Below the pieces are notes generated by a model. That model did no database searches. It saw nothing but the letters and a program-made list of their open reading frames with translations, and was not told the DNA's origin. Positions 8,991-42,879 of a DNA stretch of 64,000 nt are shown piece after piece. Position numbers and translations under genes: made by a program. Numbering within the stretch: position 1 is the first letter of the stretch; each line of letters starts with the position of its first letter. This DNA is from Candidatus Omnitrophota bacterium. GTDB lineage: Bacteria > Omnitrophota > Gorgyraeia > Zapsychrales > Fredricksoniimonadaceae. The stretch spans positions 3,834-67,833 of the forward strand of contig JABDGZ010000005.1 in the NCBI GenBank assembly GCA_013285735.1. The letters are read 5' to 3'.

Positions 8991-9872
8991 ATGACTATGA
9001 AGAATATTTTAAATTTGTTACGGGTCAAGCAATGGGTCAAGAATGGTTTTATTTTATCCCCCTTAATCTTTTCAGGAAGACTGTTTTATCTTGCTGATGT
9101 GCAAAGCGTGTCGATTGCATTTGCGGGTTTTTGTTTTTTAGCCAGCGGTTTATACGTTTTTAATGATTTTTTGGATCTTAAAGCTGATGCTTTGCATCCT
9201 GGAAAATCAGCAAGGCCCTTAGCCAGCCTGCATCTTAGTCCCTTGGTGACAGGAGCGATCATTGTAGGGCTCATGGCGGTGGGGTTATTGCTGTGTTCAT
9301 GGGTGAGCCCTGCGGTGTTCTTTGTCGGTGTCATTTATATTTTGTTGCATATCGTTTACAATTTTTATACAAAGAAAATAGTCATCCTGGATGTTATTTT
9401 TATAGCTTTTGGATTTCAGGCAAGGATTTGGGCAGGGTCTTTGGCAGCTGGCGTTTTTCCTTCAGTGTGGTTACAAATGTGCGTGTTTGTGCTGGCTTTA
9501 TTTTTAGGGTTTATCAAACGCCGTCATGAATTGATTATTTTAAAGGACAGGGCTGGCGAACACCGGGCCGTGCTGGGGCATTATACATCTTATTTGTTAG
9601 ACCAGATCATCATGATCTGTGCCACTTTAACGGTGGTATTCTATGGGCTATATGCCATATCTCCCGAGATAGCCACACGATTTAAAGGCCATGGCATGGT
9701 GTATTCAATAATATTTGTGCTTTATGGTTTATTTCGCTACATTTATTTGGTTCATGTCAAGAGAAAGGGAGGCGATCCTGGAGAAGTGATGATGTCTGAT
9801 CTACCATTAATTATTTCCATTTCTTTATGGGTTATTTATATATTATTGTTGTCCGTACATGCCTTCCTTTAA
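8991..9872 (+). CDS. UbiA-family prenyl-phosphate phosphoribosyltransferase (decaprenyl-phosphate phosphoribosyltransferase-like)
   Basis: 'LLRVKQWVKNGFILSPLIF' and 'NDFLDLKADALHPGKSARPLAS' (NDxxDxxxD...HPxK..RPxAS) match the Rv3806c-type branch of UbiA. About 8 TM segments. Confidence 0.7.
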   Translation: MTMKNILNLLRVKQWVKNGFILSPLIFSGRLFYLADVQSVSIAFAGFCFLASGLYVFNDFLDLKADALHPGKSARPLASLHLSPLVTGAIIVGLMAVGLLLCSWVSPAVFFVGVIYILLHIVYNFYTKKIVILDVIFIAFGFQARIWAGSLAAGVFPSVWLQMCVFVLALFLGFIKRRHELIILKDRAGEHRAVLGHYTSYLLDQIIMICATLTVVFYGLYAISPEIATRFKGHGMVYSIIFVLYGLFRYIYLVHVKRKGGDPGEVMMSDLPLIISISLWVIYILLLSVHAFL

Positions 9873-37001: not shown

Positions 37002-37013
37002 GAATTCTATCTA

Positions 37014-37037
37014 TGTCATTCCAGCGAAAGCCGGAAT
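37014..37037. repeat. small GAAA-loop hairpin repeat (TGTCATTCCAGCGAA family)
   Basis: ATTCCAGC-GAAA-GCCGGAAT (37018-37037, one mismatch) between the dnaX stop and the recR start. Shares TGTCATTCCNGCGAA with the element at 32106. Confidence 0.55.
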
Positions 37038-37045
37038 CTTTAATT

Positions 37046-37645
37046 ATGTACCCCAAACTAATAGAAACATTAATTGAACGCTTAACAAAACTCCCTGGCA
37101 TCGGCCGCCGCAGTGCTGAACGCATCGTGTATTGGATGCTGGCCCATGATGCTCAGGATGTCAAGGCCTTGGCAGATAGTATTCAGCAGCTAAAAGAGGG
37201 TTTACGTTTTTGCAAGCAGTGCAATCATTTAAGCGAGCAGGAGTTATGCTTGGTCTGCGCAGATACTAATCGTGACCGGAAAACTATCTGTATCGTTGAG
37301 AGTCCCAAAGATCTTTTGGCCATCGAACGCACCGGCTCTTACCGGGGTATTTATTATGTCTTATTAGGCAATATTTCTCCGTCGGAAGGTCGTGGTCCTG
37401 ATGATTTGAATTTGCCTAAGTTGATTAGTCGTATCAAGGATGAAGGGATTGGGGAGATTGTGATTGCCACTGATCCGGATGCAGAAGGTGAGATGACATC
37501 ATTATACTTGTCTAAAGAGTTAAAAAATCTGGGCGCACGCATCAGCCGTATTGGGCTTGGCATACCCGTCGGTTCTGCCGTTGAATATGTGGATATCTCC
37601 ACATTAACAATGTCCATGAACTCTCGCAGATTGGTTGACTTCTAA
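37046..37645 (+). CDS. recR: recombination protein RecR
   Basis: 'LTKLPGIGRRSAERI' (HhH), C4 'CKQCNHLSEQELCLVC', Toprim 'ICIVESPKD'. Start at ATG 37046; the upstream extension covers the hairpin repeat. Confidence 0.9.
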   Translation: MYPKLIETLIERLTKLPGIGRRSAERIVYWMLAHDAQDVKALADSIQQLKEGLRFCKQCNHLSEQELCLVCADTNRDRKTICIVESPKDLLAIERTGSYRGIYYVLLGNISPSEGRGPDDLNLPKLISRIKDEGIGEIVIATDPDAEGEMTSLYLSKELKNLGARISRIGLGIPVGSAVEYVDISTLTMSMNSRRLVDF

Positions 37646-37699: not shown

Positions 37700-37980
37700 T
37701 CCCCTGTAGCTCAGTCGGTAGAGCAACTGGCTGTTACGTAAAGTTAGCAGCCTTTAGCGGAAACGCTAGAGTGATAAGTGGGCTAAGTCAGGGAAACCCA
37801 TTAGTTTAATGGGCAATCCTGAGCTAGCATCTATCAGTTAAATGGTAGAGGGCAAGTGCAGAGACTTTACACCCACCGCCCACAGTCTTTTTAGACCGGG
37901 CGAAGAGAAAGTCCGACTCCTGTCGTAAGATAGGTCAGATTGTAACCAGTATGTCCGAGGTTCGAGCCCTCGCGGGGGAG
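37700..37980 (+). tRNA. tRNA-Asn(GUU) interrupted in the anticodon loop by a 208-nt intron
   Basis: Exon 1 (37700-37734): acceptor TCCCCTG, D-arm GCTC-AGTCGGTA-GAGC, anticodon stem ACTGG, then CTGT. Exon 2 (37943-37980): TAA, CCAGT, variable ATGTC, T-arm CGAGG-TTCGAGC-CCTCG, acceptor CGGGGGA, discriminator G. The spliced loop CTGTTAA gives anticodon GTT. CCA is not encoded. Confidence 0.85.
37735..37942 (+). ncRNA. group I intron (IC3-like, no ORF)
   Basis: P1: exon GGCTGT pairs with intron GCAGCC (37747-37752), with a U.G pair at the splice site. P10: GTTA (37743-37746) pairs with exon-2 TAAC. The terminal nucleotide is G (37942). Conserved core strings: TCAGGGAAACC (37788), GGCAATCCTGAGC (37812), GTGCAGAGACT (37856), GAGAAAGTCC (37905). 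Confidence 0.8.
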
Positions 37981-37988
37981 CTTCTTCT

Positions 37989-38039
37989 AGAAAGTCTGCA
38001 ACATATTGAAATTTAATAAGTTGCAGACTTTCTATTTTT
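37989..38039 (+). terminator. rho-independent terminator after the tRNA
   Basis: 14-bp perfect stem AGAAAGTCTGCAAC (37989-38002) / GTTGCAGACTTTCT (38020-38033), followed by ATTTTT. Confidence 0.65.
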
Positions 38040-38050
38040 ATTACGTCGAG

Positions 38051-38065
38051 AAAATCCGAACTTTT
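38051..38065. repeat. inverted partial copy (L1) of the cassette-end core
   Basis: AAAATCCGAACTTTT is the reverse complement of the AAAAGTTCGGATTTT core found in the four R elements. Lies 11 nt after the tRNA terminator. Confidence 0.6.
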
Positions 38066-38116
38066 GAATTCGAAATTACGATTGCGGTGTCATTTTTGTT
38101 GTGTTATAGTTCTTTT

Positions 38117-38368
38117 ATGCCGACGATACTTGAAATTTTAGGGTAGAGACTGTTTTTTTATGCGAATGAAAATAACGAGCCAATACATATTCATGCCCGT
38201 AAAGCAGGGATGGAATGTAAATATTGGATTGACGTTAAAGGGTTTGATATCACCGAAGCATATTCCTTTGGCTTGAAGGAAAAAGAAAAAAGGGAAATCC
38301 GTAGAATTATTTTTGATCATTTTGATTACATTGTAGATAAATGGAATGAATTTGAGAGGAGAAAATAA
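38117..38368 (+). pseudogene. DUF4160 family protein gene with in-frame TAG at codon 10
   Basis: Translation 'MPTILEILG*RLFFYANENNEPIHIHARKAGMECKYWIDVKGFDITEAYSFGLKEKEKREIRRIIFDHFDYIVDKWNEFERRK'. The TAG is at 38144-38146. The ORF abuts the DUF2442 start, the usual pair arrangement. A TTGCGG-17-TATAGT promoter-like site lies upstream. Confidence 0.6.
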
Positions 38369-38626
38369 ATGAAACCAATACATAGAATTCAAAGAATAGC
38401 TTTTTCAGGCTCTCAATTGAAGATAAAAGTGGATGGTAAAGAAGTTGTTATTAATTTAACCAAAGTTTCTCCAAGATTACTTAAGGCTTCGAAAAAAGAA
38501 CGTGAAGCTTATGAGATTTCTCCTTCTGGGTATGGTATACATTGGCCGCTGATTGATGAAGATCTTTCCGTTGATTCACTTTTAGGGATTAAACATTTGC
38601 CTTCCAAAGAATTTGTTAGTAAATAA
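38369..38626 (+). CDS. DUF2442 family protein
   Basis: 85 aa. 'YGIHWPLIDEDLSVDSLLG' is the DUF2442 hallmark. AGGAG RBS upstream. Confidence 0.7.
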   Translation: MKPIHRIQRIAFSGSQLKIKVDGKEVVINLTKVSPRLLKASKKEREAYEISPSGYGIHWPLIDEDLSVDSLLGIKHLPSKEFVSK

Positions 38627-39011
38627 CAATATTTTTTAGCCTGATAAACACGCCATAAACCTGGCAAACGCGCCATTTGCTAAGAAGCAAAAGCATCTGT
38701 TAATCGCGCAAAAATTGCTCGATTAGTGCGCGATTGATAGTTGAGACATTTATGGGACATTTGGGACATAGGGAACTTAATGGACTCATAAAGGACTCAA
38801 AGGGCTCAATATATCGGACACATCAGACAATGGAGACATAAAGAGGACAAAGGGGACATTTGAGCAAATGGTTCATAATTGGATCAAATAGCTCTATTAT
38901 TCTGGCGATTGCTTGGCGATTAGCTTCTTAAAGTGCACGAATTGCACGATTTTTGCACGTTTTTGTATTGCGCATTATGCGCATTTAATGCGCAAAAGAT
39001 TTATCTGAATT
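38627..39011. repeat. non-coding phased-word module, copy 1
   Basis: Runs of G/C-rich words, each followed by an A/T tract and each reiterated 2-3 times at 9-13-nt spacing (examples: GGGACATTT, GGCGATT, GCACG+T-run, TGCGCATT). A homologous copy lies at 39895-40361. Confidence 0.8.
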
Positions 39012-39104
39012 AAAAATAATCCATCTATCTCCATCTTTAGCTTTGGTCAGCAGGCCTAGTGTTACCTCATAAGAAAAGTTCGGATTTCTGGGGGACTCGC
39101 GGAG
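39012..39104. repeat. cassette-end element R-A
   Basis: AAAAATAATCCATCTATC...AAAAGTTCGGATTTCTGGGGGACTCGCGGAG. One of 4 copies. The minus strand reads LRESPRNPNFSYEVTLGLLTKAKDGDRWIIFNSDKSFAH*. Confidence 0.85.
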
Positions 39105-39115
39105 TTTTCACAAAT

Positions 39116-39147
39116 AGCTGTAAGTAAATAACTTACAGCTGTTTTTT
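39116..39147 (+). terminator. hairpin/terminator after R-A
   Basis: AGCTGTAAGT (39116-39125) / ACTTACAGCT (39131-39140), followed by GTTTTTT. Confidence 0.55.
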
Positions 39148-39216
39148 ATTTATTCCGACGAGAGAATTCACCTAAAAGTGAGTTTTTGAAAATAATACTT
39201 CCCAAAATGGGAAATT

Positions 39217-39228
39217 ATGGTATATTTA
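39217..39228 (+). promoter_or_regulatory. shared cassette promoter-like 12-mer ATGGTATATTTA (higBA copy)
   Basis: An identical 12-mer lies at 40544-40555 upstream of brnT. It contains the -10-like TATATT 7 nt before the higB GTG. The adjacent inverted repeat TTCCC-N5-GGGAA (39199-39213) is a possible operator. Confidence 0.35.
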
Positions 39229-39232
39229 AATC

Positions 39233-39532
39233 GTGAGAGTAATATCGGTTAAGAAGTTAAAAGATTTTTGGAGTAAGCCGGCTTACCGTGATTCCGAGCA
39301 GGCCCTCCGAGCTTGGTATGCGGAAGCTAAAAAGGGTAATTATTTTCACTCTCACCAGATTAAACAGATTTACCGGAAAGCTAGTATTGTCGGTAATGGA
39401 CGAATCGTATTTAATATTTGTGGGAATAAATATCGTTTAGTGGTGGCAGTTAAATATGAGTTTAAAATTTTTTATATTCGTTTCATTGGAACACACAGTC
39501 AGTATGACAATATTGATGTAAAGGAGATATGA
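39233..39532 (+). CDS. higB: type II toxin HigB (RelE/HigB mRNA interferase)
   Basis: 'FNICGNKYRLVVAVKYEFKIFYIRFIGTHSQYDNI' is the HigB signature. GTG start. Confidence 0.8.
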   Translation: MRVISVKKLKDFWSKPAYRDSEQALRAWYAEAKKGNYFHSHQIKQIYRKASIVGNGRIVFNICGNKYRLVVAVKYEFKIFYIRFIGTHSQYDNIDVKEI

Positions 39533-39894
39533 TTATGGAAATAAAAATTCATCCAATTAATTCGAAGAAGGATTACGAAAAAGCCTTAAGCACAATTGAC
39601 CGCTTATGGGATGCCAAATCGGGTACCGAGGAGGGCGATACTTTAGACGTGCTCACTACATTAGTTGAAGCTTACGAAAACAAGAATTACCCCATGCTGC
39701 CTCCCAATCCCGTTGAAGCTATTAAATTTCGTATGGAGCAGATGGGAATTGGGAAGGCTGACGTTGCCAATATTCTTGGTGGGGCCAATAGGGTTTCTGA
39801 AATTTTGCATAAAAAACGGAAATTAAGTTTGAGGATGATTCGTAATTTGCATGATAAATTAAAAATTCCCTATGAATCTTTAATACCTGCTTAG
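39529..39894 (+). CDS. higA: type II antitoxin HigA (HTH-XRE)
   Basis: ATGA overlap with the higB stop. 'DYEKALSTIDRLWDAKSGTEEGDTLDVLTTLVEAYE' plus a C-terminal HTH 'KADVANILGGANRVSEIL'. Confidence 0.8.
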   Translation: MIMEIKIHPINSKKDYEKALSTIDRLWDAKSGTEEGDTLDVLTTLVEAYENKNYPMLPPNPVEAIKFRMEQMGIGKADVANILGGANRVSEILHKKRKLSLRMIRNLHDKLKIPYESLIPA

Positions 39895-40361
39895 TTTCAA
39901 CCCGCCAACTTGACAAACACGCCATAAATACGCCAAACGCGCCTACCAAGGGGCATTAAAGGAGCAAAAGGGGCAGTGTTAATCGAGCAAAAATTGCCCG
40001 ATTAGTGCGTGATTAATATTTGAGACATTTATGGGACATTTGGGACATAGGAAGCTTAAAGGACTCAAAGGGCTCAATATATCGGACGTTTATCGGACAT
40101 ATTAGACAATGGAGACATAAAGGGGCCATTTGCGCAAATGGTTCATAATTAGCTTAAATGGCCCAGTAGAAACTTGACATAAACCCGACAAACACGACAT
40201 TTTGAAATGGGCCAGAATGGGGCCAAAATGGCCCTATTATGTTGGCGATTCTGGCGATTATTTGGCGATTAGATTCTAAAGTGCACGAATTGCAGGATTA
40301 TTGCACGTTTTTATATTGCGCATTATGCGCATTTAGTGCGCAAAGGTGCTCATGTTATTTC
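39895..40361. repeat. non-coding phased-word module, copy 2
   Basis: Collinear with 38627-39011, sharing the same word order: ACACGCCATAAA..., GAGACATTTATGGGACATTTGGGACATAGG, GGCGATT x3, GTGCACGAATTGCA..., TTGCGCATTATGCGCATTTA. Carries ~90 extra nt (GGGCCA/GGCCC words) around 40150-40240. Confidence 0.8.
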
Positions 40362-40450
40362 AAAATAATCCACCGGTCGCCAGTTTTTGAATTGGTAAGA
40401 CCTAGAATTATTTCATAAGAAAAGTTCGGATTTCTAGGGGACGTGGGGAG
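40362..40450. repeat. cassette-end element R-B
   Basis: AAAATAATCCACCGG...AAAAGTTCGGATTTCTAGGGGACGTGGGGAG. The minus strand reads LPTSPRNPNFSYEIILGLTNSKTGDRWIILK*. Confidence 0.85.
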
Positions 40451-40470
40451 TTTGATAGTCGAAGAAGGGT

Positions 40471-40483
40471 AAAATCCGAACTT
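40471..40483. repeat. inverted partial copy (L3) of the cassette-end core
   Basis: AAAATCCGAACTT lies 20 nt after R-B, forming an inverted repeat with AAGTTCGGATTT of R-B. Confidence 0.6.
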
Positions 40484-40490
40484 CTTGGTA

Positions 40491-40524
40491 AAAAAGCCGT
40501 CCTTAATACAAGGATGGCTTTTTT
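40491..40524 (+). terminator. rho-independent terminator
   Basis: AAAAAGCCGTCC-loop-GGATGGCTTTTTT. Confidence 0.55.
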
Positions 40525-40565
40525 ATTGAATAATGCTAAGAATATGGTATATTTACATTGTACAT

Positions 40566-40859
40566 ATGGATGATCTTAAATTCGATTGGGACAAAAATAA
40601 GGCAGTGCTTAATAAAAAGAAACATGGTGTTTCTTTTGAAGAAGCTGTCACGGTATTTTATGACGATGATGCTTTAGAATTTCATGATCCTGATCATTCT
40701 GAGAGTGAAGACAGATTTTTTATGGTAGGTTTGAGTTTTCGCACAAGGGTTTTGCTGGTTTCTCATTGTATAAGAGAAGCTGGATCATTAATTAGAATCA
40801 TTTCGGCCAGAAAAGCAACCAAGCAAGAAGCTGGGAAATATTGGGAGGAAAAGACATGA
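40566..40859 (+). CDS. brnT: type II toxin BrnT (DUF497)
   Basis: 'FDWDKNKAVLNKKKHGVSFEEAVTVFYDDDALEFHDPDHSESEDRFFMVG...IRIISARKATKQE'. Start at ATG 40566. Confidence 0.8.
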   Translation: MDDLKFDWDKNKAVLNKKKHGVSFEEAVTVFYDDDALEFHDPDHSESEDRFFMVGLSFRTRVLLVSHCIREAGSLIRIISARKATKQEAGKYWEEKT

Positions 40860-41077
40860 GAGCAGAATATGATCTATCAAAAATGAAGTTTCGTCGTAAT
40901 CCTTATGCTGCCCGGTTGAAAAGGCCAGTTACAATCCGTTTGGGCGCAGATATTATTAGCTATTTTAAGTCAATGGCTAAAGAAATGGGTGTGCCCTATC
41001 AGAATTTAATTAACTTATATTTAAGGGATTGTGTACAGGCCCATCGTAAGATAGGGTGGATATCTAATTTAAAATAA
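40856..41077 (+). CDS. brnA: type II antitoxin BrnA
   Basis: ATGA overlap with the brnT stop. GGGAGG RBS. 'VTIRLGADIISYFKSMAKEMGVPYQNLINLYLRDC' fits the BrnA/CopG-like pattern. Confidence 0.75.
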   Translation: MRAEYDLSKMKFRRNPYAARLKRPVTIRLGADIISYFKSMAKEMGVPYQNLINLYLRDCVQAHRKIGWISNLK

Positions 41078-41159
41078 TCCATCTATCTCTGTTTTTAGCA
41101 TTGGTTAGGCCAAGGATCACTTCATATGAAAAGTTCGGATTTCTGGGGGACTCGCGGAG
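41071..41159. repeat. cassette-end element R-C
   Basis: Starts within the brnA stop region. The minus strand reads LRESPRNPNFSYEVILGLTNAKNRDRWIILN*. Confidence 0.85.
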
Positions 41160-41163
41160 CCAT

Positions 41164-41207
41164 ATAATAAGAAAGCCCATCAGATTTATGATGGGCTTTC
41201 TTATTAT
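41164..41207. terminator. perfect 19-bp hairpin (bidirectional terminator-like)
   Basis: ATAATAAGAAAGCCCATCA (41164-41182), 6-nt loop, TGATGGGCTTTCTTATTAT (41189-41207). Confidence 0.5.
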
Positions 41208-41402
41208 ATTATTGGCGGGGGAGCGAAAGCTCGAAGTGTGTGCTCTTTTTAAGGGTTTGAAAAGATAGTTATTGATTGAGAAGAATTAATTTCGAAAATA
41301 TTTTTAATTTTCGTCGCTGTATATAGTTTGAAAAACGGCGGGATATATGTTATGGTTTACGGTTACCGAGAATTTTGAGATATTTTAATATTGGAAGGTT
41401 AC

Positions 41403-42698
41403 ATGAACTGTGGTTCAATTAAAGTATTTATTTTTGTCTTTTTTATGTTTTTGACGCTCTTAACCGGCTGCCCTAAGTCTTTTGCGCAACCTGTCTCGCC
41501 CACAGGAGGGGATGATTCTTCCATAAGTAAGGGAACTTCAGATGACCAAGCCAGTGAAGCTAGTGCCGATGAGTCATTGAAGCAGATTCATGATTTGGAA
41601 TTGAAAATGGAGGAGAATAGCAAGCGCTTGGACGCTCTGGAAAAGGCTATCAATCAAGCAAATACAGAAAATGCCCCTGCTGTTGAAACTGCACCCGATA
41701 CCAATACGATGATTCAACAAGCCTCCGCACAGGCAGCCCCGGACCAAACAGCTCCTGCTTCCCAGACAGCTCCCCGTGAGCAAGTTTCTTCAATCAAAGA
41801 TTCCTCTCGATTTGATCCGATATCAATGCGCATTATTTCAGACCCTCTATATTTACCGCTTAAGGGACAATTTTATGGTTCGACCGAATATGATTTTTCC
41901 AGGAATAGTTACAGTCAGGATAATTATTTAGGTAAAGAATATGCATATGATAAAAGCGATACCAATGAAGTTTCTCAGGATTTAGAGTATGGTTTGACCG
42001 ATGATTTGACCCTAAGATTTTATGATGAATTTCAAGATGATAGAAGGTATGTTGCAGGTGAAGGCGAATATTTATTTATTGGTTTTATTAATCCGGAATT
42101 TGGTGCCACTTATAGGATGATTGATCAGAAGCAATATCCAGTAGATGTTGATTTAATAGCTAATTATTACCCAGATGTTTTTAGTGAGAAAGCGGCAACT
42201 CCTGACAAAACAGGAACAGTGGCATCGGGCGGTCAGAAGATTACTTTGAGGGAAGCAGTAGGTCGAGAAATGAGAAATTTAACGATCCAGGGTTTTGTTG
42301 AAGTAGAATATCAGGGTAAGGAAAAAACTGAAATTTTGGCAGACGATAGGGATGCTGAAGACAAAGCGAGCTGGGCATATGTCTTTGGGTTAAATACCCA
42401 AATCCGTATAACGGATCGTTTTTCAGTCAATTTTGGGGGGGCATATACAGTTGCAAATAACATGGATTATACAAGTAGCACGGGGCTTTCAGGTATTCAT
42501 GTTCCAGCCGATTATAGTGATTTCGACACATCTTTAAACTATCAATTTATTCCTGATAGGCTGGTTGGTAGTTTAACTTATACCCGTAATGTTGACGATG
42601 ACAGAAAATATTTGTACGCGAACGTAGTTCACGATGAAATAGATAGGAAATATAGCCAGGATATTTTTGGGATAAAGTTTTCATATCTTTTTAATTAA
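41403..42698 (+). CDS. lipoprotein with coiled-coil N-region and beta-rich C-region (possible outer-membrane protein)
   Basis: Signal peptide plus lipobox 'LLTGC'. Low-complexity Q/A/P linker. Alternating aromatic pattern, ending 'FGIKFSYLFN'. No family recognised. Confidence 0.4.
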   Translation: MNCGSIKVFIFVFFMFLTLLTGCPKSFAQPVSPTGGDDSSISKGTSDDQASEASADESLKQIHDLELKMEENSKRLDALEKAINQANTENAPAVETAPDTNTMIQQASAQAAPDQTAPASQTAPREQVSSIKDSSRFDPISMRIISDPLYLPLKGQFYGSTEYDFSRNSYSQDNYLGKEYAYDKSDTNEVSQDLEYGLTDDLTLRFYDEFQDDRRYVAGEGEYLFIGFINPEFGATYRMIDQKQYPVDVDLIANYYPDVFSEKAATPDKTGTVASGGQKITLREAVGREMRNLTIQGFVEVEYQGKEKTEILADDRDAEDKASWAYVFGLNTQIRITDRFSVNFGGAYTVANNMDYTSSTGLSGIHVPADYSDFDTSLNYQFIPDRLVGSLTYTRNVDDDRKYLYANVVHDEIDRKYSQDIFGIKFSYLFN

Positions 42699-42786
42699 AA
42701 ATAATCCATCTATTTTTGCTTTTACCATTCGTAAGTCCCAAAATGACCTCATAGAAAAAGTTCGGATTTCTGGGGGACTCGGGGAG
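42697..42786. repeat. cassette-end element R-D
   Basis: Overlaps the lipoprotein stop codon. The minus strand reads LPESPRNPNFFYEVILGLTNGKSKNRWIIFN*. Confidence 0.85.
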
Positions 42787-42879
42787 CCAATTTGATTAAG
42801 CCCGTTGTGAGTGTTATACCTGCAGCGAGTTTACTTATTATATGGAAGCAAGTGTGAGTATTTTATTTGCTATGTCGTT

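Follow-up and report, generated by a model that had tools for sequence, protein, structure and literature searches.

Canonical large serine recombinases (LSRs) recombine attP with attB only. In staphylococci, SCC elements, mobilized by the CcrAB serine recombinases, are inserted at the 3′ end of rlmH/orfX; they occur in tandem, some of them carry no recombinase, and their direct repeats include the 3′ end of the gene. In SSV-type, or "suicidal", tyrosine integrases of archaeal viruses and plasmids (SSV1, pTN3, and pT26-2), the attachment site lies inside the integrase's own gene, and integration into a tRNA gene splits that gene (PMC8371274). According to a 2021 review, self-splitting recombinases of this kind occur in Archaea only (PMC8371274). 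In mycobacteriophages with integration-dependent immunity (BPs, cluster G/P), attP is located in the 3′ end of a coding gene, and integration at a tRNA gene alters the C-terminus of the encoded protein (PMC4557955). The authors of Islander stated that serine-family integrases were not known to target tRNA genes (PMC4383910).

Here, we analyzed a stretch of 64,000 nucleotides from a Candidatus Omnitrophota bacterium, referred to as the window, in which a tRNA-Asn gene is followed by a series of cassettes that each end in a repeat with a codon-like pattern of variation. Comparison with related loci led us to conclude that the repeats are very probably attachment-site arms of LSRs whose own gene is split at tRNA-Asn, and that the cassettes, which lack an LSR, may have been moved in trans. 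The locus looks like a serine recombinase system that targets a tRNA gene, splits its own gene, and forms arrays resembling those of integrons. A self-splitting LSR arrangement at a tRNA gene has not been described before for bacterial serine recombinases, and no description of this LSR/tRNA-Asn system was found in full-text literature searches.

The cassette array and its repeat element

The array begins directly after recR (37013–37645) and a tRNA-Asn(GUU) gene; its neighbors are recR, tRNA-Asn, and, as identified with Pfam, pqiA. A group I intron of ~208 nt (~37735–37944; Rfam RF00028, 76 bits) interrupts the anticodon loop of the tRNA, and the gene was missed by ARAGORN because of this interruption. 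The 3′ end of the tRNA, …CCCTCGCGGGGGAG, is the predicted chromosomal anchor of the array and resembles an attB. Intron-bearing tRNA-Asn genes beside recR/dnaX were also found in related contigs, and the intron of one of them (L164) contains an additional 116-aa ORF. A full-text literature search found no paper on a group I intron in a bacterial tRNA-Asn. Downstream of the tRNA lie four plus-strand cassettes, each closed by one copy of the repeat. The features are as follows.

37700–37980, plus strand: tRNA-Asn(GUU) gene, putative anchor of the array (read directly; intron assigned to Rfam RF00028)
37981–39104, plus strand: cassette 0 (Pfam), ending in element A
37989–38033: hairpin/terminator of cassette 0
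38052–38064: inverted partial core of cassette 0
38210–38626: DUF4160/DUF2442 gene pair of cassette 0 (Pfam)
39012–39104, minus strand: element A (repeat match 39008–39107), with the NPNF core at 39075–39086; its parts are the tail arm (the codons after NPNF), the NPNF core, a C-rich half-site, and the tRNA-like end CTCCGCGAG
39105–40450, plus strand: cassette 1 (Pfam), ending in element B
39112–39144: hairpin of cassette 1
39233–39532, plus strand: higB of cassette 1 (Pfam)
39529–39894, plus strand: higA-like gene of cassette 1 (Pfam)
40355–40450, minus strand: element B (repeat match 40356–40453), with the stop at 40355–40357 and NPNF at 40421–40432
40451–41159, plus strand: cassette 2 (Pfam), ending in element C
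40472–40484: inverted partial core of cassette 2
40490–40525: hairpin of cassette 2
40533–40859, plus strand: brnT of cassette 2 (Pfam)
40841–41077, plus strand: brnA of cassette 2 (Pfam)
41064–41159, minus strand: element C (repeat match 41065–41162), with the stop at 41064–41066 and NPNF at 41130–41141
41160–42786, plus strand: cassette 3, ending in element D
41163–41209: hairpin of cassette 3
41391–42698, plus strand: 435-aa secreted/outer-membrane-like ORF of cassette 3 (no Pfam match)
42691–42786, minus strand: element D (repeat match 42692–42789), with the stop at 42691–42693 and NPNF at 42757–42768

Each repeat copy in the window is followed by a different strong hairpin, mostly with a T-run, and element D, the last copy, is followed by the chromosomal flank. 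A tblastn search with four LSR queries detected no LSR gene in the 64-kb window. The preliminary description had noted that an intact gene with the same end was missing beside the rightmost copy; it is missing because the window has no recombinase gene.

Several further features of the cassettes were observed. The 435-aa ORF of cassette 3 has a signal-peptide-like start and a low-complexity stretch of Ala, Pro, and Gln, and the leader of this cassette, GAGCGARRGCTCGAAGTG, was also present at cassette starts in L010, L122, L141, and L047. A non-coding block of ~350 bp lies between the cargo and elements A and B (38640–39000 and 39910–40350, respectively) and consists of many sets of two to three tandem units of 9–11 nt, which read TGCGCAT, CGTGCAA, AATCGCCA, and ATGTCCC… on the minus strand. 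The two blocks are 85–94% alike, pieces of them also occur in L085 and L002, and in sequence they look iteron-like. Inverted partial cores, AAATCCGAACTT, open cassettes 0 and 2, where, combined with the hairpin and the end of whichever tRNA or element precedes them, they give rise to long imperfect palindromes.

The four direct repeats downstream of the tRNA are about 96–100 nt each, and their 22-mer core occurs four times in the window, compared with 0.00 expected. On the minus strand they share a conserved open frame, (W/K)LxxSPR-NPNF-…RWIIxN, followed by a stop. The translations given in the preliminary description were reproduced, as were its observations that the copies vary in a codon-like manner (variable sites by codon position, 8/9/18) and that the plus frame in the same register contains stops in three of the four copies. 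The sole indel among the copies is 3 nt long and in frame. The synonymous-change test that it had proposed gave a pN/pS of 0.21 for copies B, C, and D, compared with 0.9–1.3 in the other two sense frames; pS among the window copies was 0.79, and B, C, and D nonetheless retained both frame and stop. The tail of element B comprises 21 codons, and the opposite end of the element, …GGGGAG, is at 40450. The common stop does not extend to copy A, which contains one additional codon and in which the usual stop is lost and the frame continues for 8 codons, to 38985. Two other details held only in part. An in-frame stop 1–6 codons upstream, ascribed to every copy, is present in A and D but not in B and C, whose frames continue without a stop for 23 and 41 codons, respectively, on the upstream side of the Leu. 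The absence of a start codon does not apply to C, in which an in-frame ATG gives MGFLIIWLRESPRN… (38 aa); this 38-codon ORF is a chance occurrence.

The other end of the element (…CTCGCGGAG) copies the last 8–12 nt of the tRNA-Asn 3′ end. In the window, the element ends CTCCGCGAG and CTCCCCGAG agree with the tRNA-Asn of the window itself, CTCCCCCGCGAG. For about half of all copies, the end is …GGGGAGCCA, the encoded CCA, which accounts for the variation between W (TGG) and K (AAA) at the first "codon". A tRNA- or tmRNA-like nature of the whole element was considered and rejected: ARAGORN reported nothing, the spacing of T-arm and acceptor did not fit by eye, and only the last 8–12 nt are tRNA-like.

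To examine the frame in other genomes, we sampled element copies from about 160 contigs of Omnitrophota and related bacteria. Exact scans for the core pattern returned 49 loci in genome contigs and 106 loci in metagenome contigs, and a profile built from the first matches yielded 191 element hits, 133 of full length and 101 unique. For the most part, the loci came from Omnitrophota, MAGs labelled Planctomycetales, Zipacnadia, and Auribacterota. The distance from NPNF to the stop was exactly 25 codons in 69 of the 101 unique copies and 24–28 codons in 87; among the remaining 14 copies, nine had no stop inside the 29 codons read, and the frame length was lost in about 14% of the copies (n = 101). 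The other two sense frames reached their first stop at a median of 5–9 codons. Two peptide types were distinguished, NPNF[FS]YEVILGLTNAKSGERWIILN and NPNFSI[TN]IYVG[LM]N[NY]KKNGERWxI[VL]x, each followed by a stop, which align residue by residue yet differ in codons. By the Nei–Gojobori method, pN/pS was 0.26 for type 1 (dN/dS about 0.13) and 0.39 for type 2, against about 1–2 (0.95–1.8) when the other sense frames were used. For the antisense frame with the same wobble positions, pN/pS was 0.43–0.45, but stops interrupt this frame. Synonymous sites were near saturation (pS 0.64–0.79), and the entropies at the three codon positions were 10.7, 7.3, and 24.7 bits, respectively. The segment CCCCnAnAAATCCGAACTTTT was essentially invariant in 69 copies from other genomes, in agreement with the nucleotide-level conservation noted in the window, and the four to five "codons" upstream of it varied non-synonymously, as tRNA-derived nucleotides.

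When 25 copies were folded with RNAalifold, the tail region showed neither a structure (−1.98 kcal/mol) nor any compensatory pair, and Rfam returned nothing for the element beyond sub-threshold terminator look-alikes. Because the frame has a fixed length of 25 codons, dN/dS is low, and RNA structure is absent, the element is shaped by selection on a protein. The codon statistics agree with the earlier view that the element evolves like the end of a protein gene, here its last ~25–30 codons.

Recombinase genes and probable integration at tRNA-Asn

In several related loci, an LSR gene runs into the element in frame. In L019, a 362-codon ORF with the Recombinase and Zn-ribbon motifs of LSRs, annotated by NCBI as a recombinase (P0005), ends in …NWLRAHPKNPNFSIIIYVGLNYKRKSGRNSIIFK and a stop within the element. 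LSR frames of 281 and 259 codons enter the element in L103, where the frame ends in …KLPSHPQNPNFLYEIILGLTNAKDGDRWVIFN and a stop, and in L118, respectively. The frame in L165 (P0128) ends in …KLPESPRNPNFFYEVILGLTNAKNGDRWIILN and a stop, nearly the window's own version. Short LSR remnants enter the element in L002, L120, and L160. The Pfam domains of the element-linked recombinases were PF00239, PF07508, and PF13408, which are serine recombinase domains. LSR-like coding sequence entered the element in only about seven to eight loci, and the great majority of the 101 unique copies had no adjacent LSR. No complete, uninterrupted LSR with an NPNF tail was found on a single contig among the loci examined: L103 is cut by the contig end, a stop precedes the ORFs of L019 and L118, and the L165 frame is interrupted internally. 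The interrupting stop lies in frame inside the resolvase domain (L165, 775–1150), and the L165 LSR is probably a pseudogene or affected by a sequencing error. In an AlphaFold2 model of P0128, computed from an alignment including tails, the LSR body was confident and the tail residues 358–393 had a pLDDT of 40–47. Apparent LSR remnants upstream of the elements in L039 and L033 were discarded, as the similarity was limited to the in-frame terminator-like hairpin of an L103-type LSR (RKPFSFIAEGL).

The L165 tail, together with the convergent brnA, is 87.8% identical over 343 nt to positions 40818–41160 of the window (brnA and element C), and the similarity stops at the tRNA-like element end, …CGGGGAG. 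On these sequence comparisons, the conserved frame is the predicted C-terminal tail of LSRs that have their attachment site within the 3′ end of their own gene. In the preliminary description, the repeats had been read as integration sites around a fixed crossover core, with an individual version of a gene end brought in by each element, and this part of its reading is consistent with the LSR loci. It had also taken the repeated end to be that of a chromosomal gene serving as the insertion target, whereas the end appears to be the LSR gene's own.

Homologues of the L019 enzyme indicated how the gene is divided. All 467 of them pass through …(E/D/Q)WLP and then take one of a few endings: (a) the tRNA gene translated backwards, e.g., WLPGLDSNQRPSGY…; (b) a conserved "native" tail, …SPQTIDIILPNTIHGCKKKNL and a stop, with the same pattern as the NPNF tail; or (c) the end of the contig exactly at WLPG. 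The contig ends at WLPG may reflect assemblies that break at a repeat. The sequence TGGCTCCCCGG, which encodes WLPG, corresponds to the acceptor end of tRNA-Asn, CCGGGGAGCCA, in reverse complement. In L054, L052/53, L161, L164, L166, and L167, the frames of LSRs from the same families pass through WLP(G/R) and continue backwards into tRNA-Asn. At these LSR::tRNA loci, the tRNA-Asn carries the same group I intron and lies beside recR and dnaX, as in the window; L164 and the window are 75% identical over Tex/dnaX/recR and 90% identical over the tRNA.

Both ends of a putative island were found in L161 and L167. Read on the LSR strand, the far end of the L161 island consists of a terminator hairpin, then TGGCTCCCCG, and then the split tail, W L P D S S S S A T I P I I L P N T I H N C R K K N L, followed by a stop; the hairpin and WLPDSSSSATIPIILPNTIHNCRKKNL with its stop lie 5.3 kb from the LSR::tRNA junction. 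This tail is of a sister type, which is intact in dozens of full-length LSRs. In L167, an LSR of the NPNF subfamily, disrupted by an IS, reads into tRNA-Asn, and two NPNF-type elements lie on the same strand 3.3 and 5 kb upstream of the LSR::tRNA junction. Each putative island is bounded by an LSR::tRNA junction and a same-strand tail arm, a geometry that would be expected if attP lay within the 3′ end of the LSR gene and attB were the 3′ end of tRNA-Asn. L151 was also considered as a locus with both island ends and was set aside, as its geometry does not fit a single island. At the level of sequence, comparison with the related loci showed the apparent steps of the gene splitting.

One LSR subfamily (L052, L054, and L162) has islands in which the tail arm, at the far end, is inverted and accompanied by a duplicated LSR 3′ end, and these inverted arms are not accounted for by the simple split model. 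On the minus strands of L052 (6649–6430), L054 (339–1), and L162 (~54), a near-identical copy of the last 150–290 nt of the LSR is followed by the native tail. Recombination between such inverted duplicates would invert the island and swap the LSR tail.

Other observations concern the ends of LSR genes. The last 20–45 LSR codons before WLP are perfect in-frame DNA palindromes in L052 (11290–11390), L103 (~9560–9620), and L161 (11215–11265), encoding PASGRVGAAAGR, KKIIPIGTYRDN, and RKPFSFIAEGL; on the other strand, these palindromes would act as a terminator for the tRNA after integration. Unrelated LSR genes of the Clostridia type, found in gut metagenomes, have the same 20-mer core within or close to their 3′ ends (L097, 5848–5873; L006, L063, and L124), in the opposite orientation relative to the gene. 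In Zipacnadia-type contigs (L004, L021, L028, L031, and L048), the same ~40-nt core is followed by GCCCGTTAGTTAACATAATA in place of the 21-codon tail, and in L004 an LSR gene begins 165 nt from the core and points away from it.

We propose the following sequence of events. On the minus strand, an element would comprise a terminator-like hairpin, the tRNA end copy, the half-site CCCCnAnAAATCCGAACTTTT, and 21 codons with a stop. The copy of the tRNA-Asn end, CTCC(CC)GCGAG (8–12 nt), would serve as the overlap region, where the crossover most likely takes place. The half-site and the 21 codons would encode the native C-terminal tail of the LSR because the attachment site lies inside the LSR 3′ end. 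Integration at tRNA-Asn would split the LSR gene, leaving the LSR body by the tRNA, where it would now read "…WLP" and then the tRNA in reverse, and placing the tail-coding arm at the island's far end. Two junctions would result: attL, the tRNA::LSR body, and attR, composed of tail arm, core, tRNA end, and terminator. The window elements have the anatomy of this attR.

Probable cassette movement and alternative readings

The same cassettes were found in different positions in different genomes. The DUF4160/DUF2442 cassette with its hairpin (38012–38684) follows the tRNA in the window and an element in L082, and the two loci share the junction GGAG|CTTCT. The HigBA cassette, second in the window, takes the first place behind the tRNA in L047 and L061 and has another location in L148; the window tRNA shares 90–92% identity with those of L061 and L148. 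BrnTA with its element adjoins an LSR in L165. Cargo beside elements in other loci included HigB/HigA, HicA, BrnT, RelE, Gp49/HTH, and DUF2442. A hairpin next to the tRNA-like end was a general feature (mean MFE, −22.5 kcal/mol compared with −9.9 kcal/mol in the control; n = 94). Whether L165 or L082 is compared with the window, homology is lost at one shared crossover region. These comparisons showed that the cassettes behave as discrete, apparently shuffled modules, and suggest that the end of any element can serve as a docking point just as the tRNA end does. Since the same cargo modules occur in different orders and positions across genomes, units without an LSR have probably moved.

The window array would then be a string of LSR-less cassettes, each with a hairpin, cargo, tail arm, and core, placed in series behind tRNA-Asn and moved in trans by an LSR encoded elsewhere. 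The tail arms would stay under selection at the protein level because any arm brought beside an LSR gene, whether within an array or on an excised circle, would complete that gene; in L019, L103, L118, and L165, the element frame does complete an LSR gene. Because canonical LSRs act only on attP and attB, insertion after an element end and movement of LSR-less units are not established chemistry.

Alternatively, the cassettes may be immobile, decayed LSR islands, with a codon pattern that is simply inherited and with LSR-less copies under no selection. We consider this explanation unlikely, while giving it some weight. The remnants in L002, L120, and L160, which cover 27–85 codons directly upstream of the elements, the IS-disrupted LSR of L167, the LSR with an internal stop in L165, and the broken frame length in about 14% of copies are all in keeping with decay. 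On the other hand, most synonymous sites vary among the window copies (pS 0.79), but frame and stop are retained in B, C, and D; the great majority of the 101 copies are LSR-less, yet 87 of the 101 keep 24–28 codons; and cargo modules are reordered among genomes with 90–92% identical tRNA, implying movement of LSR-less units. We prefer the reading in which the arms stay under selection because they can complete an LSR gene.

A broader form of this preferred reading is tentative, and we would sooner doubt than assert it: Omnitrophota and neighboring phyla may possess a serine-recombinase counterpart of the integron, in which tRNA-Asn is the fixed docking site, small cassettes of hairpin, cargo, and tail are captured and shuffled there by LSRs in trans, and the tail swap is a built-in switch. 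With the crossover located within its gene, the LSR would carry a tRNA-encoded tail when integrated and its native tail when excised or placed beside another cassette. Such a C-terminal swap would switch the activity, stability, or directionality of the LSR, and would explain why even cassettes without a recombinase must keep a translatable tail.

It is very improbable that the peptide is the end of a chromosomal, non-recombinase host gene serving as a hotspot for tandem integration in the manner of SCC at rlmH. Such a hotspot would fit the tandem arrangement of the direct repeats, their fixed core, and the different versions of the 3′ end that they carry; however, a search for a full-length gene with this C-terminus, as suggested in the preliminary description, returned only four spurious ORFs with unrelated N-termini among 5.8 billion proteins (query, concatenated element peptides), LSRs are the only real genes that enter the element, and the arrays are anchored at tRNA-Asn.

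There is hardly any likelihood that the element functions as a folded DNA site or RNA (attC-like, tRNA-like, or a 3′-UTR sRNA) with the triplet pattern as a by-product. The arrays of toxin-antitoxin cassettes do look like those of chromosomal integrons, large imperfect palindromes are present at some junctions, and the element end copies the tRNA 3′ end. The preliminary description had named a conserved RNA as the alternative to coding, but the alignment contained no covarying structure and Rfam no matching family above threshold, as described above. GTTRRRY/RYYYAAC boxes were not seen by eye, an inverted box was present in only 8 of 98 copies, the junction palindromes were inconsistent, and structure cannot yield a fixed 25-codon frame with a dN/dS of 0.13.

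A free-standing micropeptide gene of about 33–38 aa is scarcely credible: copy C has its in-frame ATG (38-aa ORF) and frame and stop are conserved, but no start codon is, an in-frame stop lies directly before LP in many copies (6–7 codons upstream in L017, L026, L034, L010, and window copy A), and variation upstream of the core follows the tRNA-derived nucleotides and is not codon-like. The four element peptides had no Pfam match.

Comparison with known systems

The codon-like, start-less repeats of the window can be explained as the detachable end of the gene for the mobilizing enzyme, and the arrangement partly resembles several described systems. With SCC it shares serine recombinases, tandem arrays, some elements without a recombinase, and direct repeats derived from a gene end. 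The difference is that the repeated end in SCC is that of the chromosomal target gene, whereas here it would be the recombinase's own and the target is a tRNA gene. In the mycobacteriophages, the gene concerned is a repressor gene, the integrase is of the tyrosine type, and the tail that is removed is an ssrA-like degradation tag; the gene concerned here is that of a serine recombinase.

The chromosomal integron is an analogy for the array, which has none of the integron's defining features. The two have in common one-way arrays of small, mostly promoter-poor or toxin-antitoxin cassettes, a family-specific end repeat, one fixed anchor, and shuffling between relatives. However, the array here has no IntI tyrosine recombinase, and the element-adjacent recombinases in other loci are of the serine type; there is no folded attC with R and L boxes, and the 3′ end of a tRNA gene serves as the anchor. 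The repeat would instead be a double-stranded LSR site that also codes for protein. In practical terms, such repeats should not be annotated as small genes, and arrays behind tRNA-Asn are better regarded as mobile cassettes. The locus points to integron-like stockpiling of toxin-antitoxin and defence cassettes in a poorly known phylum, and the short sites (a tRNA end and an invariant half-site of ~21 nt), together with many natural LSR/site pairs, may be of interest for genome engineering.

As in islands of the Islander type, the islands lie between a tRNA gene and a displaced copy of the tRNA 3′ end, but the duplicated piece of tRNA is only ~8–12 nt and the remainder of the repeat is recombinase-coding. 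The loci document serine recombinases that target a tRNA gene, a combination that the Islander authors had described as not known (PMC4383910).

The SSV-type integrases share the attachment site inside the recombinase gene, the splitting of that gene, and the placement of the C-terminal piece at the far end of the element. They are tyrosine recombinases of Archaea, whereas the enzymes described here are bacterial LSRs of Omnitrophota and relatives. They differ also in what is split: only the last ~25–30 LSR codons are detached, so that the catalytic, recombinase, and zinc-ribbon domains stay intact in the LSR. Self-splitting of a recombinase gene, restricted to Archaea in the 2021 review (PMC8371274), is thereby documented in bacteria.
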